Part shown: positions 1,940 to 32,607 of the stretch, piece by piece
How the letters are laid out: each line of letters begins with the position of its first letter
Numbering within the stretch: position 1 is the first letter of the stretch
Assembly (NCBI GenBank): GCA_965365555.1
Contig: CBDUCC010000003.1
Location: forward strand, 1 to 32,607
From: an uncultured Myxococcales bacterium
GTDB lineage: Bacteria > Myxococcota_A > Polyangia > Polyangiales > Houyiibacteriaceae
Length of the DNA stretch: 32,607 nucleotides
Direction: 5' to 3'
Program-made: the position numbers and the translations under genes
Notes under the pieces: model-generated
Told to the model about the DNA's origin: nothing
Database searches by the model: none
Seen by the model: the letters and a program-made list of their open reading frames with translations, nothing else

Positions 1940-4900
1940 ATGTTTCGTTCCCTTCTCCGCCCGCCGCCGGCTGGGCTGGCCGCGGCCGGCTTTCTCCTGA
2001 TCTTTGCTCTGCTCACCCCAGGATGTGGTGACTCGGGCGACTTCGATACCAGCCCTGGGGACGCCCTTCCGACTGCGGAGCTTGCCAAGAAGGGAGGGCT
2101 CGACAATCCGCCGGTGCCCGTCGGCCCCTTCTTGAACGGCGCGTTCCCAACGCAGACCCCGAGCGATCTCTCGAGCTCGAGCTGGACGATCGTGGAGGCG
2201 TTCCCGAACGTCCAGTTCAATCAGACCCTGGTCATCTCGACGAACCCGCAGGCGGGGGACAATCGACTCTATGTCGGATCGCGCGACGGGAACATCTATT
2301 CGATGGAGAATGATCCGAGCGTCACGACCGCCGAGCCTTTCATGGACATCCGCGATCGGGTCGCCGTGGTCTGGGACGGCGGCTTCCTCGGCCTCGCATT
2401 CCATCCGGAGTTCGGAACGCCGGGATCCCCGTACGAGACGACGTTCTACACGTACTACTCGTCGTACTGTCCCACGACCTGGGACGGGCAGAAGTACGTC
2501 AACGACTTCGGGAACTGCAACCCTGGATACCCGCAGAGCTCTACCGGCGGTTTCTTCGGAACCTGGTTGAGAGGGTCGGAGTTCCAGGCGTACTTCGATT
2601 CAACGGCAGGGGTCTGGCGTGGTGATCCAGCTTCCGAGAAGCCGTTGTTCAACATCAGGCTCTACAACGGCTCACACCGCGGTGGCGGACCGATCTTCGG
2701 TGACGATGGCTACATGTACATCATCATTGGCGATCAGTTTCGTTACGACACCGCGCAGGACATTTCAGGCAACTTCGAAGGCGGGTCGATTCGAGTGTCG
2801 GTGGACGTCGTCGACAACGGTGACGGTACCTGGACTTGCCCCTCCGGGACTCACCACCCCAACCGGAACATGCGCGATGTAACCGGAAATTCCGATGAAA
2901 TGACCGGCCAGTACTATTGCATTCCGGACGACAATCCCTGGCCGAGTCCGGCAGGCGATCGATTCGAGGAGTTCTATTCGATCGGCCACCGGAATCCACA
3001 CCGGATATCGGTAGACCCGGTGACGGGGCGCATCTGGTCCGGTGAGGTGGGCCAGAGCACGCGCGAAGAGATCAACGTGATCCTCTGGGGCCGGAACTAC
3101 CAGTGGCCTTACAGGGAGGGACTCACGACTGGTGTTCGTCAAAAACCGAGCACGATCCTCGGTACGGAACAACCGCCGGTCATCGACTTCGACCGCACGG
3201 AGGCGCGCACGATCATCGGTGGATACGTCTATCGTGGAACGAAGTTCCCCGAGCTCTACGGGAAATACATCGCAGGAGACTATTCGACCAACAACGTTTG
3301 GGCGTTCACGCTCAACGAGACCACGCTCACGGCAACGAAGGATCTGCTGACGGTGTTCACACCAGGGGCGCTTTCTACCTTCGGTCAGGACAAGGCCGGT
3401 GAGATCTTTCTTGGCGACGTGTTCGGCGACGATGCGCTCTACGCCCTCGAGAGGGTTGGAGCCCCGAGCGCGGATCCACCCAGCATGCTATCCGAACTGG
3501 GCGTCTTCACGGACACGGCAAGCTTCGAGCTCAGCCCCTACTGGATCCCCTACGGGCTGAATCAGCCATTCTGGTCCGACGGCGCGGAGAAGTCTCGATG
3601 GATCGCGCTTCCCAACGATGGAACGCGCGACACGATCGACGAGAAGATCATCTACTCGGAAAACGGAGTCTGGGCGTACCCGGTCGGAACCGTGCTGATG
3701 AAGCACTTCGAGCTCGTGCTGGACGAGAACGATCCAAGCAACCGCACCCGGCTCGAGACGCGGTTCATGGTGCTCGGCGAGGACGACCGCTGGTACGGGG
3801 TGACGTACCGGTGGCGCGAAGACCAATCCGATGCGGACCTCCTGACGAGCTTCGACACAGCGGACTACACGATCGCCCTCGCGGAAGGGGGAACGCGCGA
3901 TCAGACTTGGTACTTCCCGTCGCGACAGGAGTGCCTGAACTGCCACCTCGAGGCATCCGGCGGCGCTCTCGGGCTGAACGCCCGGCAGCAGAACGGTGAC
4001 TTCTTCTACCCGTCGACGGGCAGGACCGACAACCAGCTCGCCACGTGGAACGAGCTCGGAATGTTCTCTCCGCCTCTCGATGAGTCGACCCTTTCGACCA
4101 TGATCCGTTCGGTCGACTTTAACGACGTCACGGCGTCACTCGGAACGCGCGCACGCTCATGGTTGGACTCGAACTGTGGCTATTGCCATAGGCCGGGAGC
4201 TGTGAACGCAGGGTTCGATGCCCGGCTGACCACACCTTTCGAGAATCAGGGAATGGCCTTTGGAGGAGTCCGGAACGATCTCGGCATTCCGGGGTTGACG
4301 ATCCTGACTCCCGGCGACCCGATCCTCTCAGCGATCTATCAGCGCTCAGGAATCGTCGGACCTGTGGCGATGCCGCCCTTGGCGAAGGCACTGGTGCAGA
4401 CTCCTGCCGTCGAGATCCTCGGTGAGTGGATCACGCGGGTGGAGGGCGATCTCGGACTGAATGGAATCAACTACGAATACTACGAACCCGGCCCCATGGA
4501 CTTCTTGCCGGACTTCGACGCACTCACGCCGGTTGCGACCGGGACCGTGAGCTCGTTCGACATCGGCGTGCGCCTGCGTGAGGAGGAGTTCGCCTTTCGG
4601 TTCACGAGCCTTCTCTACGTTGCAATCGCTGGAGAGTACACCTTCTACACCAGCTCGGACGACGGTAGCCAGCTCTTCATCGACGGAAGCCTAGTCGTCG
4701 ACAACGACGGCCTGCACGGTGTGCAAGAAGCCTCGAACGCCATCGCCTTGAGCAACGGTTACCATACGATCGAGGTCACGATGTTCGAGAATCGAGGCGG
4801 GCAAGCGCTCTCGGTCAACTGGGAAGGCCCGGATACCTCCGGCCAGAAGGAGCCGATCGGCCCAGGCAAGCTATTCCTGCAGGAGCCGACCATCGACAAT

Positions 4901-7900
4901 GCTCCTCCGACCCTCAGCGATCCGGGTTCACAGCAAACCGGCATCGGAACGACCGCCTCACTGAGTCTCCTCGCAACCGATCCCGACAACGATTTCTTGT
5001 ACTTCGACGCAGCAGGCCTTCCGCCTGGCCTCACGATCGATCACACCACCGGGGACATCTCTGGCGTTCCCGACTCGAGCGCTGTCGGTACCTACTCCGT
5101 CACCGCAAGCGCATCGGATGCGGTCGACGTGTCCGTGGTCTCCTTCGCATGGGCGATCACGGGAACCGGCAGCTCGTTCTGCGGCGACGGCACGGTGGAC
5201 ACGGGCGAGGAGTGCGACGATGGAAACAATGCGAACGGTGACGGTTGCTCGTCGGCTTGTGCACTCGAGTTCTGTGGTGACGGCGTGGTCAACAACAATG
5301 GCACCGAGCAGTGCGACGATGGCAACAACCTCGACGGCGACGGCTGTGCCTTCAACTGCACGATAGAGATCGCCCCTGCTTGTGGAGATGGAAACGTCGA
5401 TGCCGGCGAGGAGTGTGACGATGGAAACACGGTCAGTGGGGACGGCTGCACGGCCATCTGCATTCTGGAGTTCTGCGGTGACGCCATCGTCAACAACGGC
5501 GGCATCGAACAGTGCGACGACGGAAACACCGTAGATGGTGACGGCTGCGCCTTCGACTGCAGCTTGGAGGGAGGCGCCGACCTCACCTACACCGGTTCCA
5601 TCATCGCCCGGATCACGGAGCCGAGAGGAAGCGGAAGCAAAGACCTCGAGGTCATTCGCGACGGGGACAAGCCCCCGGTCGGAGATCGCTCTCGGACGCG
5701 CCAGTACGACACCTACTCCGGCGGCGCCTTCGCAGCCGAAGATTGGATCGGCTACGAGTACGCGACCGAGCGGCTCTTCGGTCAGGTCGTCTTCCAGGAG
5801 GGCCGTGAGTTCGGCGACGGCGGCTATTTCCTCGACCTCACGGTGCAGGTCCGCCAGGGCGGAACCTGGTTCGAAGCGCCAGGTGTGACGATCACTCCTT
5901 CGTACGCGGGCGCTGACGGTGTGAGCTACAATACGTACGTGATCGACTTCGCCCCCGTCTTCGGCGACGCTATCCGAATCTACGGCGCGCCTGGCGGCAC
6001 GAAGTACTTCATCTCCGTCGGCGAGCTCGAGGTCTTCGGCCCGGACAACATCCTCTGCGGAAACGGCTCCCTCGACGGAAGCGAGTCCTGCGACGACGGC
6101 AACACGCTGAGCGGCGACGGATGCTCGGCGATTTGTGAGATCGAAACTTGCGGCGATGGCGAGCTCAACAACAATGGGACGGAAGCCTGCGAGCCTCCGG
6201 GAACCGATCTGTGCGATGACAGCTGCCAGCTTCGCGCTCCGCTCTGTGGCGATGGATTCCTGACACCGCCCGAAGAGTGCGATGACGGGAACCTCGACGA
6301 TGGCGACGGATGCTCATCGACCTGCACCGAGGAGCTCCCCCCGCCTTGCGGTGACGGCATCGTCGACCCAGGCGAGGAATGCGATGACGGCAATGAGTTG
6401 AGCGGCGACGGATGCTCGGCTCTCTGTGTCTTCGAGTTCTGCGGAGATGGCATCGTCAACAACGGCGGCATCGAACAGTGCGACGACGGAAACACGTTGG
6501 ACGGCGACGGCTGCGCCTTCGACTGTACGCTCGAAGGTAGCGCCGATCTCACCCAGGTCGGCACGATCATCGCGCGCATCACGGCGCCGAGAGGAAGCGG
6601 CAGCAAGGACCTCGAGGTCATCCGAGATGGGGACAAGCCACCGGTCGGAGACCGGTCACGCGACCGTCAGTACGATACCTACTCCGGCGGTGCCTTTTCG
6701 GCGGAAGACTGGTTCGGCTATGCATACAGCTCGGAGCAGCTTTTCGGACAGGTCGTGTTCCAAGAGGGCCGCGAATTCTCGGATGGTGGCTTCTTCGAAA
6801 CGATCACGGTGCAGGTGCGACAAGGTGGAACCTGGATCGAGGCGCCGGGCGTGACGATCACGCCTTCGTACGCGGGCGCTGACGGCGTCAGCTACAACAG
6901 CTATGTCTTCGACTTCGCGCCGGTCTTCGGCGACGCGATTCGCGTGTACGGCGCACCCGGCGGACTCAAGTACTTCACGTCCGTCGCGGAGTTGGAGGTG
7001 TTCGGACCCGACAACATCCTGTGTGGGAACGGTACACTCGACGGAGGCGAGTCCTGCGACGACGGGAACACGGCCGGCGGCGACGGATGCTCGGCGCTCT
7101 GCCAGGTCGAGTTCTGTGGCGACGACGAGCTCAACAACAATGGGACGGAAGCCTGCGAGCCTCCGGGAACCGACCTGTGCGACGACAGCTGCCAGCTTCG
7201 CACCCCGCTCTGTGGCGATGGATTCCTGACACCGCCCGAAGAGTGCGATGACGGGAACCTCGACGATGGCGACGGATGCTCATCGACCTGCACCGAGGAG
7301 CTCCCCCCGCCTTGCGGTGACGGCATCGTCGACCCAGGCGAGGAATGCGATGACGGCAATGAGTTGAGCGGCGACGGATGCTCGGCTCTCTGTGTCTTCG
7401 AGTTCTGCGGAGATGGCATCGTCAACAACGGCGGCATCGAACAGTGCGACGACGGAAACACGTTGGACGGCGACGGCTGCGCCTTCGACTGTACGCTCGA
7501 AGGTAGCGCCGATCTCACCCAGGTCGGCACGATCATCGCGCGCATCACGGCGCCGAGAGGAAGCGGCAGCAAGGACCTCGAGGTCATCCGAGATGGGGAC
7601 AAGCCACCGGTCGGAGATCGCTCTCGGACGCGCCAGTACGATACCTACTCCGGCGGTGCCTTCTCGGCGGAAGACTGGATCGGGTACGAGTACGCGTCCG
7701 AGCAGTGGTTCGGCCAGGTCGTCTTCCAGGAAGGCCGTGAGTTCTCGGACGGTGGATACTTCCTCGACCTCACCGTGCAGGTGCGGCAAGGCGGCACCTG
7801 GTTCGAAGCACCGGGTGTGACGATCACGCCTGCGTATGCGGGGGCCGATGGAATCAATTACAACACCTACACGATCGACTTTGATGCGACCCTAGGCGAT

Positions 7901-7981
7901 GCGATTCGGATCTACGGCGCACCGGGCGGGGTCAAGTATTTCATCTCCGTTGGCGAGCTCGAGGTGTTTGCCGCGGAATAG
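1940..7981 (+). CDS. Giant multidomain lipoprotein: GSDH-like (PQQ-dependent sugar dehydrogenase family) propeller + diheme c-type cytochrome domain + PA14 + Ig-like (He_PIG) + Cys-rich repeats + three discoidin/galactose-binding-like domains
   Basis: Start at ATG 1940 (or 1928) gives a signal peptide with lipobox LLTPG-C. GSDH motifs HRGGGPIFGDDGYMYIIIGD, GHRNPHR, EEIN and NYQWP (~2190-3450). CLNCH (3932-3946), CGYCH (4175-4189) and MPPL. PA14 motif YTFYTSSDDGSQLFIDG...DNDGLHG (~4460-4860). GLPPGLTID...GDISGVP Ig domain (~4900-5160). 14 CGDG/CGNG-type four-Cys repeats from 5180. Confidence 0.85.
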   Translation: MFRSLLRPPPAGLAAAGFLLIFALLTPGCGDSGDFDTSPGDALPTAELAKKGGLDNPPVPVGPFLNGAFPTQTPSDLSSSSWTIVEAFPNVQFNQTLVISTNPQAGDNRLYVGSRDGNIYSMENDPSVTTAEPFMDIRDRVAVVWDGGFLGLAFHPEFGTPGSPYETTFYTYYSSYCPTTWDGQKYVNDFGNCNPGYPQSSTGGFFGTWLRGSEFQAYFDSTAGVWRGDPASEKPLFNIRLYNGSHRGGGPIFGDDGYMYIIIGDQFRYDTAQDISGNFEGGSIRVSVDVVDNGDGTWTCPSGTHHPNRNMRDVTGNSDEMTGQYYCIPDDNPWPSPAGDRFEEFYSIGHRNPHRISVDPVTGRIWSGEVGQSTREEINVILWGRNYQWPYREGLTTGVRQKPSTILGTEQPPVIDFDRTEARTIIGGYVYRGTKFPELYGKYIAGDYSTNNVWAFTLNETTLTATKDLLTVFTPGALSTFGQDKAGEIFLGDVFGDDALYALERVGAPSADPPSMLSELGVFTDTASFELSPYWIPYGLNQPFWSDGAEKSRWIALPNDGTRDTIDEKIIYSENGVWAYPVGTVLMKHFELVLDENDPSNRTRLETRFMVLGEDDRWYGVTYRWREDQSDADLLTSFDTADYTIALAEGGTRDQTWYFPSRQECLNCHLEASGGALGLNARQQNGDFFYPSTGRTDNQLATWNELGMFSPPLDESTLSTMIRSVDFNDVTASLGTRARSWLDSNCGYCHRPGAVNAGFDARLTTPFENQGMAFGGVRNDLGIPGLTILTPGDPILSAIYQRSGIVGPVAMPPLAKALVQTPAVEILGEWITRVEGDLGLNGINYEYYEPGPMDFLPDFDALTPVATGTVSSFDIGVRLREEEFAFRFTSLLYVAIAGEYTFYTSSDDGSQLFIDGSLVVDNDGLHGVQEASNAIALSNGYHTIEVTMFENRGGQALSVNWEGPDTSGQKEPIGPGKLFLQEPTIDNAPPTLSDPGSQQTGIGTTASLSLLATDPDNDFLYFDAAGLPPGLTIDHTTGDISGVPDSSAVGTYSVTASASDAVDVSVVSFAWAITGTGSSFCGDGTVDTGEECDDGNNANGDGCSSACALEFCGDGVVNNNGTEQCDDGNNLDGDGCAFNCTIEIAPACGDGNVDAGEECDDGNTVSGDGCTAICILEFCGDAIVNNGGIEQCDDGNTVDGDGCAFDCSLEGGADLTYTGSIIARITEPRGSGSKDLEVIRDGDKPPVGDRSRTRQYDTYSGGAFAAEDWIGYEYATERLFGQVVFQEGREFGDGGYFLDLTVQVRQGGTWFEAPGVTITPSYAGADGVSYNTYVIDFAPVFGDAIRIYGAPGGTKYFISVGELEVFGPDNILCGNGSLDGSESCDDGNTLSGDGCSAICEIETCGDGELNNNGTEACEPPGTDLCDDSCQLRAPLCGDGFLTPPEECDDGNLDDGDGCSSTCTEELPPPCGDGIVDPGEECDDGNELSGDGCSALCVFEFCGDGIVNNGGIEQCDDGNTLDGDGCAFDCTLEGSADLTQVGTIIARITAPRGSGSKDLEVIRDGDKPPVGDRSRDRQYDTYSGGAFSAEDWFGYAYSSEQLFGQVVFQEGREFSDGGFFETITVQVRQGGTWIEAPGVTITPSYAGADGVSYNSYVFDFAPVFGDAIRVYGAPGGLKYFTSVAELEVFGPDNILCGNGTLDGGESCDDGNTAGGDGCSALCQVEFCGDDELNNNGTEACEPPGTDLCDDSCQLRTPLCGDGFLTPPEECDDGNLDDGDGCSSTCTEELPPPCGDGIVDPGEECDDGNELSGDGCSALCVFEFCGDGIVNNGGIEQCDDGNTLDGDGCAFDCTLEGSADLTQVGTIIARITAPRGSGSKDLEVIRDGDKPPVGDRSRTRQYDTYSGGAFSAEDWIGYEYASEQWFGQVVFQEGREFSDGGYFLDLTVQVRQGGTWFEAPGVTITPAYAGADGINYNTYTIDFDATLGDAIRIYGAPGGVKYFISVGELEVFAAE
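5381..7978 (+). repeat. Intragenic tandem repeat with a 966-nt (322-aa) period, about 2.7 copies
   Basis: Landmarks recur at exactly +966 (GACCTCGAG at 5642, 6608, 7574; GAGCTCAACAAC at 6161, 7127). About 6239-6651 is identical by eye to 7205-7617. Confidence 0.9.
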
Positions 7982-8972
7982 CCTGACCCGACGGGTGCGT
8001 GTACGGACCCAGTGGATCCCAGAAATGAATCCAAATATCGCGCCACTGCGCCTCGCAGGCCGGTGACTGATACCTCGATTGAAGCGCGGCTCGAATCGAG
8101 GAAACCGACCAACCCAGCGTCCAGAACAAATTCGCGGCGAGCAGTCCTCCCCGGCCGTACCGCTCGTAGAAATAGCGAGTACGTGACTCGTAATAGTATC
8201 GCGGTAGGCGCTTCTTCGCGCGAGTCTGAGACTTCACCGGGGAGCTGCCGCCTCGAAGGTGGACGACTCTGGCCTCCGGATGATGGAGAACGCGCCATCC
8301 GGCATCTCGCGCCCTGGCGCAAAACTCCGAGTCCTCGAAGTACATGAAGAAGCCTTCATCGAGAAGGCCCACGTCCACGAACACCTCTGCACGAATCAGG
8401 ACGCAGGCGAAGCTCGTCCATTCCGGAAACGAGTCGGCATCCTTGACGGGGATGGGCACGTCGTAGCGGGCGAGCAAATTGGTGATTGGGCCCGTGGCCG
8501 CCCCGTCGATGAGCTCGCTGACGGGCCGATGAAAGCGAAAGCAGCTTTCTTGCGGCGTCCCATCGGGCCATTGGAGTCGGGGGCTGATCAGTCCCGAGTC
8601 AGGATCCGCCGTCGCCCTCGCCAACAATTTGGCGATCGCACCGTCCTCGAGCAGCGTGTCGCTGTTGAGCAGCAGGTAGTAGTCTGCGTCGCAACTGCGT
8701 ATCCCAAGATTGTTCCCGGCTGCGAAGCCTCCGTTGGTTTCCGAGGCAATGACCTGAACGACGTCGGCTGCGTCGTTCTCGCATACCCATCTAGAGAGGC
8801 TCTCGACGGAATCGTCGGGGGACGCGTTGTCGACCAGCGCGACCCGACCTCCGGACTCACGAACTTGCGGAACCAACGTCCGCAAGCAATCGATGACCAT
8901 CGAAGGGGTACGGTAGTTCACCACCACGACGCAAATCGGAATCTTGCACTCGTCGGCGCTCTCGATAGTCAT
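7941..8972 (-). CDS. Glycosyltransferase family 2
   Basis: VVVVNYRT, VDNASPD, NGGFAAGNN, LLLNSD, LLDEGFFMYFEDSEFC. The probable start is ATG 8972, an ATGA overlap with the upstream sulfotransferase stop, not 9203. Confidence 0.9.
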   Translation of the reverse strand: MTIESADECKIPICVVVVNYRTPSMVIDCLRTLVPQVRESGGRVALVDNASPDDSVESLSRWVCENDAADVVQVIASETNGGFAAGNNLGIRSCDADYYLLLNSDTLLEDGAIAKLLARATADPDSGLISPRLQWPDGTPQESCFRFHRPVSELIDGAATGPITNLLARYDVPIPVKDADSFPEWTSFACVLIRAEVFVDVGLLDEGFFMYFEDSEFCARARDAGWRVLHHPEARVVHLRGGSSPVKSQTRAKKRLPRYYYESRTRYFYERYGRGGLLAANLFWTLGWSVSSIRAALQSRYQSPACEAQWRDIWIHFWDPLGPYTHPSGQAIPRQTPRARQRR

Positions 8973-10015
8973 GTGGTTGCGTTGTCGGCTCCGCGCGGCG
9001 GCTGCTTGCTGAGCAGGGACTTGACGAAGAAGGAGACGGACTGCCGAGCCGAAGGATTCCGAACCAGACGCGCCGCCTGGGCAGCAGTGAATCGCGCGCT
9101 GGTCCAAACGAAGTCGGGAACATCCTGGACGCGAAGTCGGCCTTCGGCAGCCGGATAACCGAGTGCGCGCATCGAATCGCCTGCGATGCGCTCGCAAATC
9201 CACGACTCCGTCGGCGTGATGGAGCGGCGCTTGCCACCTTTGAACGACGTGTTGCCTTTCGAAGGCTGGAGCTCGCCCTCCAATCGGCTGCCAAGGAAGT
9301 CGGCAATTTTGGTCGCCTCTCCGGTGGGATCGGCAACCAGCTTCTCGAATTGCGCGAAGTGGACCAACCCCTCTCGGTCCGCATTGACCATGGCCTCCGC
9401 CGCCATGCGCCAGTACCGGGCGTAAACCAGCGGATGGTACTCGCCCGGCTTGCCGTCTTGCCCATCCACATACTTCTTGGAGGCCATCACCCGGCGGGGG
9501 TCACGGTAGATGAAGATGAAGCGGACATCGGGCCAGAGCTCCCGGAGCATGCCGAGGTGCATGAAATCCTGCGGCGCCTTGTAACCCCAGTGACTGCAGC
9601 CGTGGTGGCGGGCAAGGCGAGTCATCCACTCCTCGAGAAGCTCATGCCAAAGCACCTCTTTGCCCCGAAACGTGGCCAGCAGAGCCTCGTCCATACGGTC
9701 GACATCTTCCCAGGTGCAGTTCGGCGCATCGAACACGGCCCACTTGATCCTCGCCCTGACCTGCCATCCGAGAAAATCGACCAACTTCTCGAGCTGGGCC
9801 TCGCTGAGCGGTCCATCGACGCCGAGTGCCTTGGCCGTTCTGAATAGATACAGATCGTCGAAGACGTACCAGTCGTCGATCTGGGAAATGACGTGTGAAA
9901 GATAGGAGCTTCCGCTTCGTGGCAAGCCAACCACGATCACGGGCGCGTAGCGCGGCTCCCCGACGATCGGCTGGGTAGCGAAGAGCGGACTATCTGTGGG
10001 TGCGACGGAGGTCAT
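8969..10015 (-). CDS. PAPS-dependent sulfotransferase family protein
   Basis: 5'-PSB loop VGLPRSGSSYL, WGYKAP, 3'-PB motif YRDPRRVMAS, FEKLVADP. Confidence 0.85.
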   Translation of the reverse strand: MTSVAPTDSPLFATQPIVGEPRYAPVIVVGLPRSGSSYLSHVISQIDDWYVFDDLYLFRTAKALGVDGPLSEAQLEKLVDFLGWQVRARIKWAVFDAPNCTWEDVDRMDEALLATFRGKEVLWHELLEEWMTRLARHHGCSHWGYKAPQDFMHLGMLRELWPDVRFIFIYRDPRRVMASKKYVDGQDGKPGEYHPLVYARYWRMAAEAMVNADREGLVHFAQFEKLVADPTGEATKIADFLGSRLEGELQPSKGNTSFKGGKRRSITPTESWICERIAGDSMRALGYPAAEGRLRVQDVPDFVWTSARFTAAQAARLVRNPSARQSVSFFVKSLLSKQPPRGADNATT

Positions 10016-10087
10016 TCTCAACCGAAATTAAGATAGCCCATGGTTCATGGTGCGGAAAGGCGGAGGAGGCCTTGGAGCTCGATGCTG

Positions 10088-11512: not shown

Positions 11513-11518
11513 GCCGAA

Positions 11519-17016: not shown

Positions 17017-17022
17017 GCGGGC

Positions 17023-20117: not shown

Positions 20118-20209
20118 GATGTTTCCCCAAGTCACGATGCCTTAATCTTTTGGGATGAATCCCCGCCGATCAATTCCTCCATCAGCTGTTTTACGGATCT
20201 ATACACGGG

Positions 20210-20255: not shown

Positions 20256-20415
20256 CTTATTGAGATCCCGGGCCTCAGGTGGCTGGACTCCTAGGAAATT
20301 GGCCCGCAAGGAGCGAATCAGCCCACCATGGTTTCGTCACGGCGCATCCGCGGACCACGCGGCCGCCCTCCCACGTCGCGGACCGCGACTCCGCAGCCAC
20401 GGACCCCGCAGGACT

Positions 20416-23807: not shown

Positions 23808-23822
23808 CGAGGCGCCCCGCTT

Positions 23823-24851: not shown

Positions 24852-25040
24852 GGTTGCCTTCCGTTTTCGAAGCTAGCGGACCGGTTCAGGCCACGCAAAC
24901 GAGCCGGATCTCTGTTAGGCAACTCACCGTCGGGGAAGGCCTGCCTTCTTCGAATGGGGCACGTCGGACGTTGGTCGTCCAGGTTGCTGACTGTTAGGCT
25001 TTATACGACCTCAAGTTTTCCATCCAGCAAGGACGAACAG

Positions 25041-25817
25041 ATGAAAGCGGTAATCCTGGCGGGCGGCCAAGGGACGCGGATCAGCGAGGAATCCGGCTTG
25101 CGTCCCAAGCCCATGATCGAAATCGGCGGCAAGCCGATCCTCTGGCACATCATGAAGCTCTATTCGGCAGCTGGCGTCAACGACTTCGTCGTATGCCTCG
25201 GGTACAAGGGCTACATGATCAAGGAGTACTTCGCGAACTACTTTCTTCACACTTCCGATGTGACCATCGACGTCAAAGAGAATCGTATGGAGGTCCACTC
25301 GAAGTACGCAGAGCCCTGGAGGGTGACCCTGGTCGATACCGGAGCAGCGACTATGACGGGAGGTCGTATCAAACGGATTGCACCGTACGTGCGAAACGAA
25401 GATTTCTGCCTCACATACGGCGACGGGGTCAGCGATCTGAACATCCGCAGACTACTGGAATTTCATAAGAGTCATGGACGGACAGCCACCGTCACCGCGG
25501 TCCAGCCACAAGGCCGTTTTGGTTCCGTCCAAGTGGAAGGCGAAGACGGTCGTGTGACGGAGTTCGTCGAGAAGCCCCTCGGAGACGGCCAGTGGATCAA
25601 CGCTGGATTTTTCGTGGTATCCCCCAAGGTCTTCTCGTACATCGACGCGGATGACACGATTTGGGAGCGAGCCCCGATGGAGCGCTTGACCCGGAACGGA
25701 GAGCTCTCAGCCTTCCGGCACGAGGGGTTCTGGCACGCCATGGATACGATGCGCGACAAGGCACATCTCGAGGAACTGTGGGCTTCTGGCAAGGCTCCAT
25801 GGAAGACCTGGGACTGA
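25041..25817 (+). CDS. rfbF: Glucose-1-phosphate cytidylyltransferase
   Basis: [17 protein letters not shown]...[69 protein letters not shown] before ATG 25041. Confidence 0.95.
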
Positions 25818-25837
25818 GAGAAAGGATTCGGTGAAGC

Positions 25838-27070
25838 GTGGCACCTACTTGCAGACACTGCGGCAGCCCACTCGAGGTTTCGTTCTGCGACCTCGGGATG
25901 TCACCCCTTGCGAACTCATACCTCGCACCTGAGCAGCTCGACCAAATGGAGCCGTTCTATCCACTGCATGCCTATGTCTGTGGAGAGTGCTTTCTGGTTC
26001 AATTGCAGGAGTTCGAGACTCCTCAGCAGATCTTCACCGAATACGCGTACTTCTCCTCGTACTCGGATAGCTGGGTTGCACATGCGAAGCGCTACGTGGA
26101 TCAGATGATCGAACGCTTCGGCTTCGACAGCTCCAGCCAAGTCATTGAGATCGCGAGCAACGACGGCTATCTACTCCAATTCTTCAAAGAGAGGGACGTA
26201 AGGGTGCTCGGAATCGAGCCGGCGGCGAACGTCGCCCGCGCGGCCGAGGAGAAGGGGATCGACACGCTCGTACAGTTCTTCAATCCTGAGACTGCCAGCG
26301 AACTCGGGGACCGCGGCGTCCAAGCCGATCTTCTGCTCGGCAACAACGTGCTCGCACACGTGCCCGGACTGAATGAATTCGTCCGTGGAATGAAGATCGC
26401 CTTGAAACCTAAGGGCATCATTACGATGGAGTTCCCACACCTGCTTCGCCTGATGCAGGAGAACCAGTTCGACACGATCTACCACGAGCACTTCTCATAT
26501 CTGTCGCTCGGTACCGTAGAGCGCGTGTTCGCGAAGTTCGGCTTGAGGGTGTTCGATGTCGACCAGCTCCCGACCCACGGGGGCTCGCTGCGCATCTACG
26601 CCACCCACACCGATAACGATGCTCGGCCGACGACCGAGAACGTCCACGCGCTCAAACGAGAAGAGCTCGAAGCAGACCTCGGCTCTCTCGACGCCTATCG
26701 GAAGTTCGCAGATGGTGTCAAAGAGACGAAGCGGAAGCTCCTGAACTTTCTCATCGAGGCACGCGAGCAGGGCAAGAGTGTCGTCGGCTACGGTGCTCCC
26801 GCCAAAGGGAACACGCTTCTCAACTACTGCGGCGTTCGCACCGACTTCATCGACTATACGGTCGACCGGAGCCCGCACAAACAGGGCCGTTTTCTGCCCG
26901 GGGTGCACCTGCCAATCTACGACCCCGACCGGATTCGTGAAACGAAACCCGACTACGTTTTGATCCTACCCTGGAACATCAAGGACGAGATCGTGAAGCA
27001 GATGTCCTACGTGCGCGATTGGGGAGGCCGGTTCGTGGTGCCGATTCCCGAAGCGCGAGTCCTGCCGTGA
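25838..27070 (+). CDS. SAM-dependent NDP-hexose C-methyltransferase (zinc-binding N-terminus)
   Basis: CRHC...CGEC zinc site, EIASNDGYLL, NNVLAHVP, FDTIYHEHFSY, THGGSLR, YGAPAKGNTLLN, ILPWN. Confidence 0.9.
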   Translation: MAPTCRHCGSPLEVSFCDLGMSPLANSYLAPEQLDQMEPFYPLHAYVCGECFLVQLQEFETPQQIFTEYAYFSSYSDSWVAHAKRYVDQMIERFGFDSSSQVIEIASNDGYLLQFFKERDVRVLGIEPAANVARAAEEKGIDTLVQFFNPETASELGDRGVQADLLLGNNVLAHVPGLNEFVRGMKIALKPKGIITMEFPHLLRLMQENQFDTIYHEHFSYLSLGTVERVFAKFGLRVFDVDQLPTHGGSLRIYATHTDNDARPTTENVHALKREELEADLGSLDAYRKFADGVKETKRKLLNFLIEAREQGKSVVGYGAPAKGNTLLNYCGVRTDFIDYTVDRSPHKQGRFLPGVHLPIYDPDRIRETKPDYVLILPWNIKDEIVKQMSYVRDWGGRFVVPIPEARVLP

Positions 27071-27365
27071 GCGAGCGGATCCCGATCGGGGGCCCATAGA
27101 TCAACATAGAAGAAGTCGCGTACGCAGCAGAGTCCGCGGCTGTGGGCTGGTACGAGAAGGCCAAGCTCTACGCGCAGTGCTTCCAAGAGGCCTTCGAGCG
27201 ATGCCTCGGCGCAAGGGACCCGATGGCGGTGCCTCATTGGACCTCCGCGATCCATGTGCCGTTGGAGGGCCTCGGAATAGGTCCGGGGACGAGGGGATCG
27301 TTCCCGAGATCACGTGGATCGCGAGCGCAACGAAGTCGCACACGAGCGGAGCCCACAGGGCTTGA
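27067..27365 (+). pseudogene. Truncated, degraded DegT/DnrJ/EryC1/StrS aminotransferase remnant
   Basis: GTG 27067 overlaps the methyltransferase TGA. It reads MSERIPIGGP*INIEEVAYAAESAAVGWYEK...FQEAFERCLGA..MAVPHWTSAIHVPLEGLGIGPG, with in-frame TAG at 27097-27099. After a frameshift in GGGG (27285-27288) it continues DEGIVPEITWIASA. The rest of the gene is absent. Confidence 0.8.
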
Positions 27366-27421
27366 ACCTGCCCTCGGCCATGCGGTTCACGAAAGGACAG
27401 GTCGATCGGATCTGCGCCGTT

Positions 27422-28573
27422 CTACGAGATCTTGTCGCGAAGCGTTGAACGGGGCGGGGTGGATGCTTCCACTTCGCGCGCTCGGTGCTCCAGCGCCGCA
27501 GCACGTTGCATAGCGTTGGACGCCGGACGCATATCGAGGGTCTCGAGGACTTCGTTCCATCGGTACAACCAGTCGTGACGACGCAACATCTGGGTCATGT
27601 TGGCCAATCTTGCTGCGCGCATCCGATCGGGCTCGGCGTCGAGGGACTCGAGTAGCTTGACGATCCCAGCCGAACCGAATGGGAACGGAATCACGGCGTC
27701 AGGCCAATCGAAGTCCGAGCGGAACACGTCGCAGTCGGGAGGCTCGCCCACCAAGATTGCGCCCGCCGCAGCGCCCTCGAAGTACCTTGGGCCGAATACC
27801 TGCCCACCTTGGGTTTGTTCGGGAACGTTGGCTTTCGACCGATCTGCCATGAAATATCGGGCGCGCTTGATGAGGCTTGCCGTGAGCGACCGGTGTTGCG
27901 CGTGATCCTCAACGAAAGTCGTCCAGCGTGCGGAATCGTAGAAATAGTTGAAGCCAGGTGCGCCGTTCGCGCGCTCATAGAGTTCACGGTGAGCGACGGG
28001 CGAGCGTCGCCCAAGCGCATAGAAGTCGATCGTGCGAGGCGGAGGGCTCGGATACGGGCAGAACCGGAGGGCGTCGACGCCAAACGACTGGTAGCTGCAA
28101 GGGGGCCGTATGAGAGTCGAGAGCGGCCCCACGATGGCTGCATGGCTGACGAACACGTGGTCGAACTGGTCGAGAAGACTCAATGTCTTCGTGTCGCGCA
28201 GCCGCTCCATCCAGAACTCGTCGATCCAGCAGACCTTCACGGCACAGCGCTCTCGCCAGCCCTCGACAGCGTCGAGAATGCGAACGTCCTGTGGGTTCAT
28301 CACCCGAACGAAAAGGAGGTCGTATCGACCGCTCAGTCTCGTCTTCTCTGTCGTCGGACGGCGGTTAACGTCGATACCCCAACGTCGACGAAGCTGCCGA
28401 ACGGCGAGGGTTTCCCCGGGCAAGAGCCTCGGCTCAGAGAGCTGCGGAGCCACCATTTGGACATCGTCCACCGCGCAGACGACGTCTTCGAATTCGAACA
28501 TACTGGCCCAGCTCACATGGGGAGTGCGAAACCGATGGCTGACCATCAGGACCCTCGGACGTGCCTCGCTCAT
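27422..28573 (-). CDS. Glycosyltransferase, CgeB/Glyco_trans_1_2-like
   Basis: FGVDALRFCP, IDFYALGRR, FGPRYFEGAAAGAILVG, HDWLYRW. GAGGTGG RBS before ATG 28573. Confidence 0.72.
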   Translation of the reverse strand: MSEARPRVLMVSHRFRTPHVSWASMFEFEDVVCAVDDVQMVAPQLSEPRLLPGETLAVRQLRRRWGIDVNRRPTTEKTRLSGRYDLLFVRVMNPQDVRILDAVEGWRERCAVKVCWIDEFWMERLRDTKTLSLLDQFDHVFVSHAAIVGPLSTLIRPPCSYQSFGVDALRFCPYPSPPPRTIDFYALGRRSPVAHRELYERANGAPGFNYFYDSARWTTFVEDHAQHRSLTASLIKRARYFMADRSKANVPEQTQGGQVFGPRYFEGAAAGAILVGEPPDCDVFRSDFDWPDAVIPFPFGSAGIVKLLESLDAEPDRMRAARLANMTQMLRRHDWLYRWNEVLETLDMRPASNAMQRAAALEHRAREVEASTPPRSTLRDKIS

Positions 28574-28751
28574 CACCACCTCTTTTCAAGGTAGCCGCCG
28601 TATTTCGGGGTGCAACAAGAGAAGTCCTGCTGAGCGCTCTTTCATGAAGGCATGAGAAGGGGTCTGCGGAAGCGCTCCGCATCGCGCCGTCGAGCGACTT
28701 CGGTGAAGCCCGAGAGGGTTAATCGCAGCGACTCGGGCTGATCGGGCAGGA

Positions 28752-28886
28752 TCAACGCGAGGATCGCGCCAGACCGGAGGTACGCCGCCGGCGCGTGCGA
28801 CGTCGACGGGCGACCGCGAGGCCGAGGAGGCCTAGGCAAACCATTGGGTCCATCGGAGCCCCTTCGCCGCCTACGCTGCACCCACC
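28752..28886 (-). other. MYXO-CTERM-like C-terminal sorting signal
   Basis: GGC motif, short linker, hydrophobic segment, Arg-rich tail. Confidence 0.8.
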
Positions 28887-31800
28887 CGAGACGCTCTCCG
28901 CCCTGATGGGCGGGTCGGTCGGCCCGCCGAGGCCGCCATCGAACATCGGAACGCCCCCGTCGAGGTCGAGGTCCTCGATGCGGCAAAGCTGGGAGCAGCC
29001 GTCACCCACCTCGAGGTTGCCGTCGTCGCATTCCTCCTCGTCGTCCAGCATTCCATCCCCACAGAAGGGCGCCGACTCTGACCTGCAATCCGAGGAGCAG
29101 CCATCGCCGTCAACCAGGTTGCCGTCGTCACAGCTCTCGGCGCCGGTCACGAAGCCATCTCCGCATTCGGTCACGCGCAAGGAGCAATCGCTGGTGCACG
29201 AACCGTTCCCAGGTGGCTCGCACTCTTCCTCGCCGGTGCCGTTTACCTGACCGTCGCCGCAGAACTCCAAGATACAAGTAGCGGAGCAGCCGTCGCCGTC
29301 CTGGGTGTTTCCGTCTTCGCACTGCTCAGGAGGTGTCTGGAAGCCGTCACCGCATACGGGAGCTCGGGCCTTGCAATCGTCGCCGCAGAGCGCTGTGCCC
29401 GGAGGGTCGCACTGCTCGTCTGCGTCGTTGGCGACCCCATCGCCACAGTACTCGACCAAACAGGCCGCAGAGCAGCCATCGCCGCTGATACGGTTTCCGT
29501 CCTCACACTCCTCGGGCGACGTCAGATACCCGTCGCCACAGGTGGATCCTCGGAAGGTGCAGAACTCGGAGCACTCCGAGGTGCCAGGTGGTTCACAGGC
29601 CTCGCTCCCAGCATTGTTGACGATGCCGTCGCCACAGTACTCCAGCAGGCAGTTGGATGCGCATCCGTCGCCGTTCGCAGCGTTGGTATCGTCGCACTCC
29701 TCGGGCGGAGTCAGCAAGCCGTCCCCACAACTCGGATTGCGCTGGCGGCAGTTGTCTGTGCAGACAGTGGTACCCGGCGGCTCGCACTCCTCAGCGCCGC
29801 TGTCGTTGACGACTCCGTCGCCGCAGGTCTCGAACACACAGTCGACCGCGCAACCGTCACCACCGGTTCGGTTTCCATCGTCGCACTGCTCGGGTGGGGT
29901 GAGCAGGCCATCGCCGCACTGAGGCGTTCGAATCGCGCACAACGCGGTGCAAAGCGGTGTACCGGGCGGCTCGCAGCCCTCGCTTCCGCGGTTATTGACG
30001 ATTCCGTCCCCGCAGACCTCGACCCGGCAGCTCGAGCTGCAGCCGTCGCCATCGACGCGGTTGCCATCGTCGCATTGCTCTCTCGAGTCTCGCTCCCCAT
30101 CGCCGCACGCAGGTGGAATTTCGACGGCACAGCTTGCCGAGCACCCGTCTCCACCGGAGCGATTTCCATCATCACAGGCTTCGGGTGGCGTGAGGAAACC
30201 ATCCCCGCATACAGGCGTCCGGAAGGTACAGTCTTCCTCGCAACTGCTCGTGCCGGGTGGCTCGCAGTCTTCCGTCCCCGCACCGTTCACCACCCCGTCA
30301 CCGCAGAGCTCGAAGACGCAGGAAGACGTGCAGCCGTCGCCGTTCGCTGTGTTCCCGTCGTCGCACTGCTCCGGCGCTGTCTTAAATCCGTCTCCACAAA
30401 GCGGCGCGCGGTCCTTGCAGCCGGAAGTGCAGGTCGCGGTGCCGGGCGGATCGCAGTCTTCGGCACCTGCATCGTTGACGACGCCGTCGCCGCAAAACTC
30501 CGCTGTGCAGCTCGAGCTGCAACCGTCGCCGTTCGCGGTGTTTCCGTCATCGCACTGCTCGGGAGAGGTCCGGAAGCCATCACCACATGCCGGAGCTCTG
30601 AATTGGCAGTTCGCCGTACAGGTGGTCGTGCCCGGGGGCTCGCAGTCTTCGGCGCCTCCGTCGTTGACCACTCCGTCACCACAAGACTCTGCGATGCAGG
30701 CGGACGTGCAACCGTCGCCGGTCCTGGTGTTTCCGTCATCGCAGGCTTCGGGTGGGGTCAGGAAGCCATCGCCGCACACCGCTGGGCGAAACCTGCAGTC
30801 AGCACCGCACGCCGCCGTGCCTGGGGGCTCGCACTGCTCTCGCCCGGCGTTGTTGACCACGCCATCTCCGCAAAGCTCCGCGACGCAGGTCGAGGTGCAG
30901 CCGTCGCCGTTGGCCGCGTTCCCGTCCTCACACTGCTCGGGAGGCGTCTGAAATCCATCGCCGCACGTGGCCGTTCGCTCGCGGCAGTCGCTCGTGCACA
31001 GCGGGGTATTGGGGGGTTCACAGCTCTCCGAGCCACCACCGTTCACCACACCGTCGCCGCACACCTCCTCGGTGCAACTCGAGGTACAGCCGTCACCGCT
31101 CGTGAGGTTTCCATCGTCACACTGCTCCGGGGGCGTGACGAAGTCATCCCCGCATGTCGGCAAACGAACGCTGCAGCCATTGGTGCATGTAGCCGTCCCC
31201 GGCGGCTCGCAGGTTTCGGAGCCTCCGTCGTTGACCAGGCCATCACCGCAGAACTCGATGACGCATGCGGAGGTGCAACCATCGCCGTTTACCGAGTTTC
31301 CGTCATCGCACTGCTCGCCGCTGGCAACGTCTCCATCTCCGCAGACTGCCGAAGCGATCGTCCAGACGAAGCTGACCACGGATACCGAGGGTCCGTCCGA
31401 CGCACTCGCCGTGACCACTGCGGCACCGGCTTCCGACGGACGTCCCGAGATGACGCCGCTATCGTGGTCCACAGTCAACCCGGCCGGTAAACCCTCCGCG
31501 TCGAAGTAGAGCACGCCCCCGTCGGGATCGGTCGCGGCGAGCGCCAGTGATACGTTTTCGCCCGGCGCACCACTCTGCGAGCCTGGATTGCTGAGCACGG
31601 GCGACCTGTTGGGGTCTGCGGCGGGAAGGCGCTCGATCCAGGCGCCGAGCAGGTCGACCGCCGGCTGCTCAGGCAACGACTTGGCTAAGGGAGGCATCGC
31701 AATGGCGCCCACGGCCGCACTTCGCTGCCAGAGCGCGGACAGAACTGGATCGCCCGGATAGAGGACGACCGTGCCCGGCCTACCGAGATCCTCGCGGACC

Positions 31801-32606
31801 GGTGTCCAAAGGAAGTCTTGCTGGTCGAAGGGCGTGGTGAAGCGGGCGTCGAAGCCCGCATCGACTCCATCCGGCCGATGGCAGTAGCCGCAGTTCGAGT
31901 CGAGCCAGGACCTCGCCCTGTCTTGAAGGGGCGCCGAAACATCGGCGTAGGCAGGTGCCCTCGGCAGTGAAGACGTCGACGATGCCGAAACGCTTTGAGA
32001 GAGCATCCCGAGGTCGCTCCAGGTGACGAGTTGGTTATCGGTGCGACCGGAGCTCGGATAGCTGAAGTCACCATTGAGATGGTGCGTCTTCACGCCGAGC
32101 GCTCCTCCCGAGCTGTCCCGATGGCAGCTCAGGCAGTCGAGGCGGGATGGGAAGTACCAGGTCTGCGTCCGAGAGCCTCCGCCCTGCAGGTCGATGGAGA
32201 AGTTGGCTGTCGCGCTCGTGGTGAGAAGGTCGGCCTCTTGCTGATTGGAGCGCCAACGGTACGTGAGGCCATACCACTCGCCGTCGTCGCCAAGCACCAT
32301 GAAACGGGTCTCTAGCCGGGTGGTGACGCTCGGGTTCGACTCGTCGCGGGGAAGCTCGAAGTGCTTCATCAGAACGGTGCCCGTCGGAAACGTCCAGTCA
32401 CCGGTCGTCGAGAAGCCAACTCGCTCGGAGGCGCTGTTGCGATTCCCGTCGTTGGGCAGCGCGATGTAACGGAACTTGCGCGCACCGTCCGACCAGAACG
32501 GCTGGTTCAAGCCATAGGGCACCCAGTACGAGCTCGGGGTGGCAGCGTTCATGCTGGAGAACGCACCCGTTTGTGAGAGCAGTGATGGTGCATCGGCCTG
32601 TGGTTC
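28752..32606 (-). CDS. Giant surface protein, 5'-partial: diheme c domain + Ig-like (He_PIG) + 25 Cys-rich repeats + MYXO-CTERM; paralog of 1940..7981
   Basis: The frame is open to the window edge (EPQADAPSLLSQTGAFSS-MNAAT...). CLSCH (32121-32135), CGYCH (31878-31892) and MPPL. It shares segments with the left gene (PYGLNQPFWSDGA, TRLETRFMVLG, SWLDSNCGYCHRP). C-terminus GGCSVG...MVCLGLLGLAVARRRR. Confidence 0.88.
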   Translation of the reverse strand, partial: EPQADAPSLLSQTGAFSSMNAATPSSYWVPYGLNQPFWSDGARKFRYIALPNDGNRNSASERVGFSTTGDWTFPTGTVLMKHFELPRDESNPSVTTRLETRFMVLGDDGEWYGLTYRWRSNQQEADLLTTSATANFSIDLQGGGSRTQTWYFPSRLDCLSCHRDSSGGALGVKTHHLNGDFSYPSSGRTDNQLVTWSDLGMLSQSVSASSTSSLPRAPAYADVSAPLQDRARSWLDSNCGYCHRPDGVDAGFDARFTTPFDQQDFLWTPVREDLGRPGTVVLYPGDPVLSALWQRSAAVGAIAMPPLAKSLPEQPAVDLLGAWIERLPAADPNRSPVLSNPGSQSGAPGENVSLALAATDPDGGVLYFDAEGLPAGLTVDHDSGVISGRPSEAGAAVVTASASDGPSVSVVSFVWTIASAVCGDGDVASGEQCDDGNSVNGDGCTSACVIEFCGDGLVNDGGSETCEPPGTATCTNGCSVRLPTCGDDFVTPPEQCDDGNLTSGDGCTSSCTEEVCGDGVVNGGGSESCEPPNTPLCTSDCRERTATCGDGFQTPPEQCEDGNAANGDGCTSTCVAELCGDGVVNNAGREQCEPPGTAACGADCRFRPAVCGDGFLTPPEACDDGNTRTGDGCTSACIAESCGDGVVNDGGAEDCEPPGTTTCTANCQFRAPACGDGFRTSPEQCDDGNTANGDGCSSSCTAEFCGDGVVNDAGAEDCDPPGTATCTSGCKDRAPLCGDGFKTAPEQCDDGNTANGDGCTSSCVFELCGDGVVNGAGTEDCEPPGTSSCEEDCTFRTPVCGDGFLTPPEACDDGNRSGGDGCSASCAVEIPPACGDGERDSREQCDDGNRVDGDGCSSSCRVEVCGDGIVNNRGSEGCEPPGTPLCTALCAIRTPQCGDGLLTPPEQCDDGNRTGGDGCAVDCVFETCGDGVVNDSGAEECEPPGTTVCTDNCRQRNPSCGDGLLTPPEECDDTNAANGDGCASNCLLEYCGDGIVNNAGSEACEPPGTSECSEFCTFRGSTCGDGYLTSPEECEDGNRISGDGCSAACLVEYCGDGVANDADEQCDPPGTALCGDDCKARAPVCGDGFQTPPEQCEDGNTQDGDGCSATCILEFCGDGQVNGTGEEECEPPGNGSCTSDCSLRVTECGDGFVTGAESCDDGNLVDGDGCSSDCRSESAPFCGDGMLDDEEECDDGNLEVGDGCSQLCRIEDLDLDGGVPMFDGGLGGPTDPPIRAESVSGGCSVGGEGAPMDPMVCLGLLGLAVARRRRTRRRRTSGLARSSR
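28974..31343 (-). repeat. 25 tandem four-Cys Myxococcus-type (DUF4215-like) repeats, mostly alternating A and B types
   Basis: Type A is CGDG..E.CDDGN...GDGC...C (14 copies). Type B is CGDG.VN..G.E.CEPPGT..C...C..R (11 copies). The A+B unit is 63 aa (189 nt). Confidence 0.9.
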
Positions 32607-32607
32607 G

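Follow-up and report, generated by a model that had tools for sequence, protein, structure and literature searches.

We analysed the whole of contig C3 (32,607 nucleotides; hereafter the window) from a metagenome-assembled genome (MAG) of an uncultured Myxococcales bacterium, on which two giant genes converge, one at 1898/1940-7981 (+) and one at 28752->32606 (-), referred to here as the left and right giant genes. We assign a probability of about 0.6 to the reading that they encode envelope- or surface-anchored sugar or glycan dehydrogenase-cytochrome fusions, a bacterial analogue of the fungal AA12 pyranose dehydrogenase. Each gene would yield an exported, anchored multidomain oxidoreductase of one widespread family, with a catalytic head formed by a six-bladed propeller of the soluble glucose dehydrogenase (sGDH)/HHIP type that keeps the general-base His and the Arg(-Asn) flanking the quinone of pyrroloquinoline quinone (PQQ). 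Fused to this propeller would be a two-haem module, made up of a beta-sheet haem domain resembling cytochromes c'-beta and P460 and then a small His/Met cytochrome c. The propeller would oxidise an aldose or a glycan end, with the electrons travelling by way of both haems to an acceptor outside, and the head would work alone, without a conserved partner gene. PA14, Ig and F5/8-type-C-like modules in the left protein, and a long stalk of Cys repeats together with a MYXO-CTERM lipid anchor in the right protein, may hold the head on or near a surface polysaccharide. The two proteins are ordinary, if unusually long-tailed, members of a large annotated propeller-dihaem family. The new points are the lack of a conserved partner, the mismatch between the distributions of the head and of pqq genes, and the invariance of the catalytic dyad and haem sites, together with a predicted c'-beta/P460-like fold of the first haem domain that carries middling scores.

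Architecture of the two giant proteins

The source MAG (G000) comprises 4.13 Mb in 623 contigs and is 92% complete and 2.6% contaminated; close relatives in public records carry Polyangiales or Myxococcota MAG labels. The left and right giant proteins are paralogues that share a TIGR03806 two-haem domain, a He_PIG Ig-like domain and DUF4215/TIGR02232 Cys-rich repeats, with two CxxCH motifs in each two-haem domain. Their dihaem domains are 60% identical over 326 residues without gaps (E 5e-127), and their Ig and Cys-repeat parts are about 41% identical. An initial annotation of the window had described inward-pointing, related giant haem-c genes around a glycan locus, and the open reading frames (ORFs), domains and dihaem identity confirm that pairing. 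The features of the two genes are as follows.

1898-7981, +: left giant gene, 2027 residues from the GTG at 1898, with ATG codons at 1928 and 1940
1940-2026, +: signal-like N terminus ending at Cys43 (LLTPGC, a non-canonical lipobox), read from the translation
2045-3457, +: six-bladed GSDH/sGDH-HHIP-type propeller (PF07995, 94.9 bits; cut-off 25)
3479-4438, +: TIGR03806 two-haem domain, residues 528-847 (195 bits), with CLNCH at 3932-3946 and CGYCH at 4175-4189
4580-4846, +: PA14 domain (PF07691, 49.2 bits)
4904-5158, +: He_PIG Ig-like domain (PF05345, 42.8 bits)
5159-7978, +: DUF4215/TIGR02232 Cys-rich repeats in 12 stretches, interleaved with three 155-residue modules
5561-6025, 6539-7003 and 7517-7978, +: the three 155-residue C-terminal modules, with a period of 322 residues (966 nucleotides)
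28752-32606, -: right giant gene, C-terminal 1284 residues, its 5' end running off the contig
31626-32588, -: TIGR03806 two-haem domain, residues 7-327 (218.8 bits), with CLSCH at 32121-32135 and CGYCH at 31878-31892
31356-31601, -: He_PIG Ig-like domain (PF05345, 43 bits)
28962-31349, -: DUF4215/TIGR02232 Cys-rich repeat stalk of about 800 residues in 14 stretches (269 and 438 bits)
28788-28886, -: predicted MYXO-CTERM sorting signal (GGCSV, hydrophobic helix, Arg-rich tail; TIGR03901, 20.0-20.8 bits; cut-off 20)

The 155-residue module of the left protein had no sequence match in the PDB and gave only noise in Pfam at E <= 10; language-model features (score 0.97) offer a lead that it may be an F5/8-type-C or galactose-binding-like domain. 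Tandem Repeats Finder reported nothing in the tail of the left gene, and the 966-nucleotide period emerged from another repeat search. The three repeat units (5180-7968) are 74-82% alike in DNA yet encode nearly identical protein modules, a pattern that suggests protein-level selection and makes an artefact of assembly less likely. The best relatives of the left protein (L035, L036/L007 and L037) are different genes from those of the right protein. In the closest relative of the left head (L035, 9911-17029; 72-74% identity), a 2372-residue protein, the head is fused to lysyl-oxidase and cadherin-like/Big_9 domains, which stand in place of the Cys repeats. The right protein has 106 Cys residues, and its ORF begins at the linker ahead of the TIGR03806 domain.

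Predicted folds and conserved residues of the head

An AlphaFold (AF2) model of the 811-residue head, built from an alignment of 60 homologues, had a predicted local distance difference test score (pLDDT) of 90.8 and a predicted template modelling score (pTM) of 0.83. In a Foldseek search with this model, ranks 1-32 were HHIP and PQQ sugar dehydrogenases (3a9g, 7cdy, 2g8s, 3das, 1c9u), with fungal AA12 at rank 43; the whole head returned propeller matches only, and the dihaem domain was modelled separately. When aligned with phmmer (1c9u numbering), His211 of the head corresponds to His144 of sGDH, and Arg316-Asn317 correspond to Arg228-Asn229. Across 60 homologues from several phyla, His211 and Arg316 are invariant (60/60 each), whereas Asn317 is kept in 46 and replaced by Ala in 12. 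His144 is described as the general base and Arg228/Asn229 as residues around the PQQ ketones (PMC6881810).

The two-haem module matches TIGR03806 from end to end, over profile positions 2-313 of 314 in one giant protein and 2-314 of 314 in the other. All 82 aligned dihaem domains keep both CxxCH motifs and Met304 (in AMPP). No second invariant candidate for an axial ligand was found in this alignment, where His82 is present in 73 domains and Lys44 and Lys81 in 81 each. The CxxCH motifs, the export signal and the cytochrome c assembly genes present in G000 are the features of c-type cytochromes, from which haem attachment is predicted. The dihaem domain had no sequence match to any PDB chain and only noise in Pfam at E <= 10, and literature searches, which did not cover supplements, returned no paper on the TIGR03806 family or on the propeller-TIGR03806 fusion.

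A separate AF2 model of the dihaem domain (pLDDT 93.5) had no Foldseek match at E <= 0.001; the best rows were P460 and c'-beta proteins, at E values of 6.6e-3 to 0.1 and probabilities of 0.75-0.87. A VIA structure search of the same model against 48,161 chains gave four chains at Z >= 5. Thermus cytochrome c'-beta (8brk) was aligned at Z 7.1 with a root mean square deviation of 3.0 over 117 of 135 residues, followed by M. capsulatus P460 (6hiu; Z 6.4), N. europaea c'-beta (7s5o; Z 6.3) and FoxE (5mab; Z 6.0), the last over model residues 226-328. The three c'-beta/P460 matches align 117-123 residues and span model residues 3-180/199, stopping near the first CxxCH (158-162). Judged by these models, the first haem likely sits in a c'-beta/P460-like fold and the second in a His/Met cytochrome c.

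Probable head and anchors of the right protein

A tblastn search of the genome with the N-terminal 525 residues of the left protein identified a 3'-open ORF of 456 residues in the last 1.37 kb of contig C135. It starts MRTDLSQRPRPPLLVLLLLVAAC, with a signal and a lipobox (LLVAAC), carries a GSDH propeller (PF07995, 92.1 bits; cut-off 25) and is 51% identical to residues 53-485 of the left protein. Compared with the left protein, it ends about 35 residues short of the start of the right ORF, so that about 35 codons are missing between the contigs. The best relatives of the C135 piece are L045 (74%) and L040 (71%), those of the right dihaem domain are L040 (76%) and L045 (74/68%), and in each of these genes the two parts are contiguous. 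Because the best relatives of both pieces are the same two single genes, the C135 ORF and the end of C3 very probably belong to one gene, and the C135 piece would supply the head of the right protein. A propeller and signal peptide, which the initial annotation had proposed to seek beyond position 32607, were thus found on C135, and its claim that both proteins display the same redox head holds for the left protein and, across the predicted join, for the right. The L045 orthologue of the right protein (9917-13713) is itself split over overlapping frames of 644, 460 and 242 residues, through a frameshift or a sequencing error. Joining the 3' end of C135 to the 5'-open TIGR03806 ORF of contig C201 was rejected; the C201 domain is only 30% identical to that of the left protein, and the ORF fits instead a stand-alone TIGR03806 class with open frames of about 330-500 residues in relatives.

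Lipoboxes follow the pattern [LVI][ASTVI][GAS]C after a hydrophobic stretch. LLVAAC of the right protein fits this pattern, whereas LLTPGC of the left protein falls outside it, with Pro at -2; many homologues have L-x-[AG]-C at the corresponding place. At the other end of the right protein, the MYXO-CTERM assignment is borderline by score (20.0-20.8 bits against 20), and the Cys motif, helix and Arg-rich tail are all present. G000 contains at least six MYXO-CTERM ORFs, and a myxosortase-family protease is encoded on contig C123 (Mrt_core, 126.1 bits; cut-off 100). In many myxobacterial homologues, an L-x-[AG]-C lipobox at the N terminus goes together with a GGCSV/helix/RRRR tail at the C terminus, and others have a plain signal peptide. 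Many homologues (among P0029-P0063) end in CGLGFELA...RRRR, a Cys-containing tag unlike GGCSV that may be another sorting signal. A study of MYXO-CTERM proteins gives a working model of Sec export, Cys lipidation, cleavage by MrtX and type II secretion to the surface, and likens the last step to that of the lipoprotein pullulanase (PMC11980579).

It is possible from these signals that the right protein is tethered at both ends. In the initial annotation, it was suggested that the left head could be membrane proximal and the right head at the tip of a stalk. The stalk and MYXO-CTERM anchor stand, with a myxosortase in the genome, but the predicted N-terminal lipid anchor beside the right head weakens the stalk-tip picture, unless the signal is cleaved without lipidation.

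Distribution and gene neighbourhoods of the head family

Relatives of the head number at least 710 proteins at E <= 1e-20, in a search that scored only the 7999 best word-sharing candidates. They come from Polyangiales and other Myxococcota, Planctomycetota, Bacteroidota, Calditrichia and Thiocapsa, and their tails include PA14, He_PIG, F5_F8_type_C, GLEYA, DUF4215 or Por_Secre_tail domains. They are annotated as "PQQ-dependent sugar dehydrogenase" by NCBI and as "uncharacterized repeat protein (TIGR03806 family)" by JGI. Among genomes sampled at one per species from many phyla, at least 609 stretches encode a head relative, and the best 80 of these loci gave 772 ORFs in 76 loci, which were clustered into families. 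The most frequent neighbour, a short-chain dehydrogenase, occurs at 7 of the 76 loci, followed by GT4 (family 4 glycosyltransferases; 5), RND, ABC and sulfatase families (4 each) and another GSDH-cytochrome c (3).

BLAST with 24 labelled seeds placed at least one look-alike of a glycan-synthesis gene within 10 kb at 11 of the 76 loci. Among the 32 loci with full 10-kb flanks, 5 had a match, and three or more such genes occurred at only one locus. The same seeds match 33 genes of G000; without the 9 on C3 and C135, this gives 0.116 per 20 kb, or a probability of about 0.11 for at least one match. Since BLAST seeds miss distant glycosyltransferases, the counts are lower bounds on both sides. Family-wide, glycan genes are thus found near head loci at about the background rate. 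The initial annotation had proposed a candidate redox/glycan surface system, which scattered homologues with no conserved linkage to glycan loci would refute; with no neighbour above 7 of 76 loci and such linkage seen only within the genus, a conserved system is not supported, and that refuting condition largely holds.

In the roughly 20.8 kb that separates the giant genes, 17 ORFs were called, covering Wzx/Wzy-type glycan genes as well as genes for sulfotransferases and oxidoreductases. Glycosyltransferases are represented by GT2 (family 2), GT4 and a GT1-like protein, and there are three sulfotransferases. Alongside Wzx and a Wzy-like protein lie an epimerase, a nucleotidyltransferase, an enzyme for sugar C-methylation (a C-methyltransferase) and a member of the IMPase/CysQ family. 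A GMC oxidoreductase with a small twin-arginine translocation (Tat)-signal partner and a DUF1552/DUF1588 pair are also present.

7941-9203, -: GT2 glycosyltransferase (PF00535, 52.9 bits)
8969-10021, -: sulfotransferase 1 (PF13469, 82 bits)
10088-11512, -: Wzy/O-antigen-ligase-like polytopic membrane protein with 10 hydrophobic segments (PF04932, 30.9 bits, just under the cut-off of 31.7)
11519-13069, -: 516-residue membrane protein with a weak LA_3751/3752 glycosyltransferase-family match
13066-14954, -: 152-residue Tat-signal protein and GMC-family oxidoreductase
15140-16072, -: sulfotransferase 2 (PF13469, 118.7 bits)
16135-17016, +: sulfotransferase 3 (PF00685, 57.8 bits)
17023-20135, -: DUF1552 protein and DUF1588/1592/1585/1595 lipoprotein, the latter with one CQGCH
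20260-22973, +: Wzx-type MOP flippase and GT4 glycosyltransferase (PF13440, 175.9 bits; PF00534, 125.3 bits; NF007773)
23007-28579: IMPase/CysQ-family phosphatase, NAD epimerase, nucleotidyltransferase, sugar C-methyltransferase and GT1-like protein (profile matches)

The flippase, polymerase and glycosyltransferases of a Wzx/Wzy system are all represented, with the Wzy-like match just below its cut-off. No priming phosphoglycosyltransferase and no Wza/Wzc export parts were found among the ORFs scanned in the window and C135; the rest of the genome was not searched. Upstream of its head ORF, C135 encodes a GT2, WecG/TagA, an exosortase E/CPBP fusion and rmlD/C/A/B, and with these genes included, the giant genes would be internal to a larger exopolysaccharide locus instead of flanking it. 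The exosortase E/CPBP protease fusion (C135, 607-7448) is of the VPEID-CTERM type (TIGR04162, 209.8 bits; cut-off 150). The 152-residue protein, with a Tat-like start (SRRAFITRL), lies directly upstream of the GMC-family oxidoreductase with no adjacent cytochrome subunit, and we take the two to resemble the small-subunit/flavoprotein pairs of periplasmic sugar dehydrogenases. The DUF1552/HXXSHH protein also has a Tat-like start (MAINRRDMIR), and the neighbouring lipoprotein (LTGC) would, through its CQGCH, be a third predicted haem-c protein within the glycan locus.

Within the genus, eight head loci in six genomes were surveyed with Pfam annotation; these loci are kin and not independent. A glycosyltransferase or sulfotransferase lies near four of the eight, against the background of about 0.11. 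The G012 locus has an exosortase, two C-methyltransferases, a nucleotidyltransferase, PIG-L, a UDP-glucose dehydrogenase, a sulfotransferase and beta-helix proteins, and the G013 locus has an orthologue of the window's 2-oxoglutarate (2OG) oxygenase (73%), two GT2 and one sulfotransferase. Two GT4 are present at G003_C15, and a sulfotransferase, WecG and a deacetylase at the G015 locus. No glycan genes were found among the called ORFs of G008_C2 (pqq operon), G003_C54, G022_C120 and G008_C1; at G008_C1, a WecG-like tblastn match lies about 10 kb off, and the neighbours are two GMC oxidoreductases, an aldehyde dehydrogenase, a second GSDH and a TonB receptor. At G012 (L025; G012:C13, 927-7409), the head gene has the exosortase on one side and, on the other, a convergent gene for a 2160-residue protein whose domains are FG-GAP, fn3, Laminin_G_3 (three) and RGI-lyase-type. 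Other Myxococcota genomes have only stray glycosyltransferases near the head, and the nearest orthologues lie in non-glycan contexts, L035 by lipoate/fatty-acid genes and L045 by respiratory oxidases. Linkage to a glycan locus is a feature of a few related genomes in the genus and not of the family. Among public sequencing runs, no RNA runs were matched; the only matches were DNA runs from sediment, which shared at most 0.48 of the sequence words.

These neighbourhoods bear on whether the paralogues act as a single functional unit with the roughly 21 kb that separates them. The heads would then oxidise or cross-link the sulfated polysaccharide of the locus, or take electrons from it, at two heights above the membrane. 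One glycan locus, extended by the C135 genes, contains both giant genes, whose tails carry sugar-binding-type modules. G012 repeats the order of epimerase, C-methyltransferase, head gene and exosortase, G013 has the same 2OG-oxygenase/GT2/sulfotransferase flank, and the four-in-eight count in the genus exceeds the background. However, the closest orthologues of both proteins (L035 and L045) lie in unrelated contexts, neither head of the complete genome G008 has glycan-synthesis neighbours among the called ORFs, and 65 of the 76 loci family-wide are without glycan-synthesis genes, while the genus loci are kin. The right head, apparently lipid anchored at its own N terminus, also need not be at a stalk tip. 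We consider the single-unit reading unlikely.

Catalysis, binding and the PQQ question

Several observations weigh against the dehydrogenase-cytochrome reading itself. The TIGR03806 scores of both giant proteins (195 and 218.8 bits) are below the cut-off of 313.3, as is that of a third copy in the genome (247.5), and the TIGR03606 scores (38.5 bits for the left head and 34.8) fall far under 434.55, which leaves both outside that family. Blades 5-6 of the propeller align by sequence only to HHIP, so the PQQ-holding residues there cannot be mapped. HHIP is not known to bind PQQ. Within the genus, pqqC was found in only 2 of 25 genomes (G000 and G008) and the full head in 10 of 25, so that pqqC was found in just 2 of the 10 head-bearing genomes; G012, G015 and G003 are 97-99% complete. 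The match to the c'-beta/P460 fold is of middling strength, best Z values of 7-8 being typical of models without a clear match. The right head depends on an unproven join of two contigs in a MAG with 2.6% contamination, and contigs from three public runs at 30600-32607 are short and of low depth, none reaching or bridging the contig end. The domain make-up, paralogy, conserved residues, distribution and lack of conserved neighbours are observed, whereas what is said of haem attachment, of the cofactor and substrate, of the way electrons flow and of exposure at the surface is predicted. Finally, a different bacterial PQQ-like propeller, also fused to cytochromes, bound no PQQ in vitro (PMC10916295).

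Use of PQQ by the head is therefore not assured. Judging by pqqBCDE on contig C84, directly after another GSDH-family gene, G000 does make the cofactor, and one of the head genes of G008 is only about 5 kb away from pqqBCDE. On C84 (L115, 2-5000), the GSDH-family ORF (at least 663 residues, 5' open) ends where pqqB begins and is followed by pqqB, pqqC, pqqD, pqqE and an ABC transporter, which makes this GSDH gene co-operonic with PQQ synthesis. E. coli keeps PQQ apo-enzymes without pqq genes, so that a head in a genome without pqq genes could still be a PQQ enzyme.

The same observations could be read in terms of noncatalytic adhesins, in which (sulfated) glycans are bound by the HHIP-like propeller and by the PA14, Ig and discoidin-like modules, and the haems are structural or redox sensing. 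The best fold matches are to HHIP, including complexes with heparin and a glycosaminoglycan mimic (7pgm, 7pgn), and blades 5-6 align by sequence only to HHIP; most head-bearing relatives have no pqq genes, and adhesin-type modules are many. Against this, invariance of His211 and Arg316 in 60 of 60 homologues across phyla and of two haem sites in 82 of 82 domains would be hard to explain for a lectin, and the E. coli apo-enzymes show that pqq genes can be absent from a genome that encodes PQQ enzymes. We hold this explanation to be quite unlikely.

Stand-alone TIGR03806 proteins also exist, one of them in G000 (L005; C201, 2-2302; 247.5 bits, 5' open, with a Gly-rich linker) immediately upstream of a MauG/MbnH-like dihaem peroxidase. 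Such proteins, the c'-beta/P460 fold matches and the presence of one invariant extra axial ligand (Met304) for two haems, with Lys44/Lys81 and His82 less strictly kept, would suit a haem module that is itself the catalytic centre, its five-coordinate c'-beta/P460-type haem acting on nitric oxide, hydroxylamine or peroxide while the propeller binds or delivers, but Z values of 6-7 are within the range for models without a clear match and the conserved catalytic dyad argues that the propeller is active, which makes this reading very unlikely.

Comparison with known systems

Among characterised proteins, Coprinopsis cinerea CcPDH (AA12 propeller, AA8 cytochrome and CBM1) resembles the heads described here in that an extracellular sGDH-type propeller is fused to a haem domain and a carbohydrate-binding module, and the AA12 structures 6h7t and 6i1t are among the fold matches of the head; the roles of its domains are described in PMC5960967 and PMC6881810. 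CcPDH is fungal, with one b-type haem and no lipid anchors, whereas the myxobacterial proteins have two predicted c-type haem sites (TIGR03806), bacterial sorting signals and PA14/Ig/Cys-repeat tails, and their activity is predicted from sequence. Teredinibacter turnerae TERTU_3803 and TERTU_2913 are also large secreted proteins that combine a propeller, c-type cytochromes and carbohydrate-binding domains, for which two reports propose an extracellular redox role (PMC10916295, PMC12055684). They differ in having a PF08450-X173 propeller and X183/X132 cytochromes, and their propeller bound no PQQ (PMC10916295).

The soluble PQQ dehydrogenases of A. calcoaceticus (sGDH; 1c9u/1cq1) and E. coli (Asd/YliI; 2g8s) share the six-bladed fold, and their GxHxGG and G-H-R-N-P motifs align with the head. 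Identity is only 14-23%, however, the head's blades 5-6 are nearer HHIP, and the head is fused to haem and binding modules. The SO2930 family of TIGR03806 has the same full-length profile and both CxxCH motifs; in the giant proteins, this is a domain within a fusion and scores below the cut-off. Cytochromes c'-beta and P460 (8brk, 7s5o, 6hiu) have a beta-sheet haem-c domain that the first haem domain is predicted to resemble, with the aligned range (model residues 3-180) ending at the first CxxCH, but identity is 12-16% at middling Z values, and the domain here continues into a second, FoxE-like cytochrome. In TraA of Myxococcus xanthus, a distal PA14-like domain stands on a Cys-rich stalk. 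Here the distal part is instead a redox head, and the lipobox suggests a second, N-terminal anchor. TraA and other MYXO-CTERM proteins share the N-terminal export signal and the C-terminal Cys motif, helix and Arg tail (PMC11980579).

Implications

Copies of the head in this genus would have settled inside an exosortase-linked sulfated exopolysaccharide locus, a position which suggests that the cell's own coat may be the substrate or scaffold of the head. A local functional tie of the heads to the sulfated polysaccharide is nevertheless doubtful, and the paired arrangement around the locus should not be taken as a conserved system. A more far-reaching view, which we regard as improbable when taken whole, would make the family a phylum-spanning, self-contained extracellular quinohaemoprotein with a c'-beta/P460-type open-site first haem, a counterpart of the fungal cellobiose and pyranose dehydrogenases that was recruited in two differently tethered copies to the exosortase-linked locus, where it oxidises the cell's own matrix or wires that matrix to outside acceptors.

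The source organism is an uncultured marine-sediment myxobacterium, and the head family, with its predicted functions, is widespread. Hundreds of environmental bacteria in at least eight phyla encode the head, which is predicted to be attached to the surface through the sorting signal of each phylum. If the head does oxidise sugars and transfer the electrons to outside acceptors, these proteins would play in bacteria the part of the dehydrogenases with which fungi drive the oxidative breakdown of polysaccharides, and may provide a route from matrix or detrital glycans to extracellular electron transfer in sediments.

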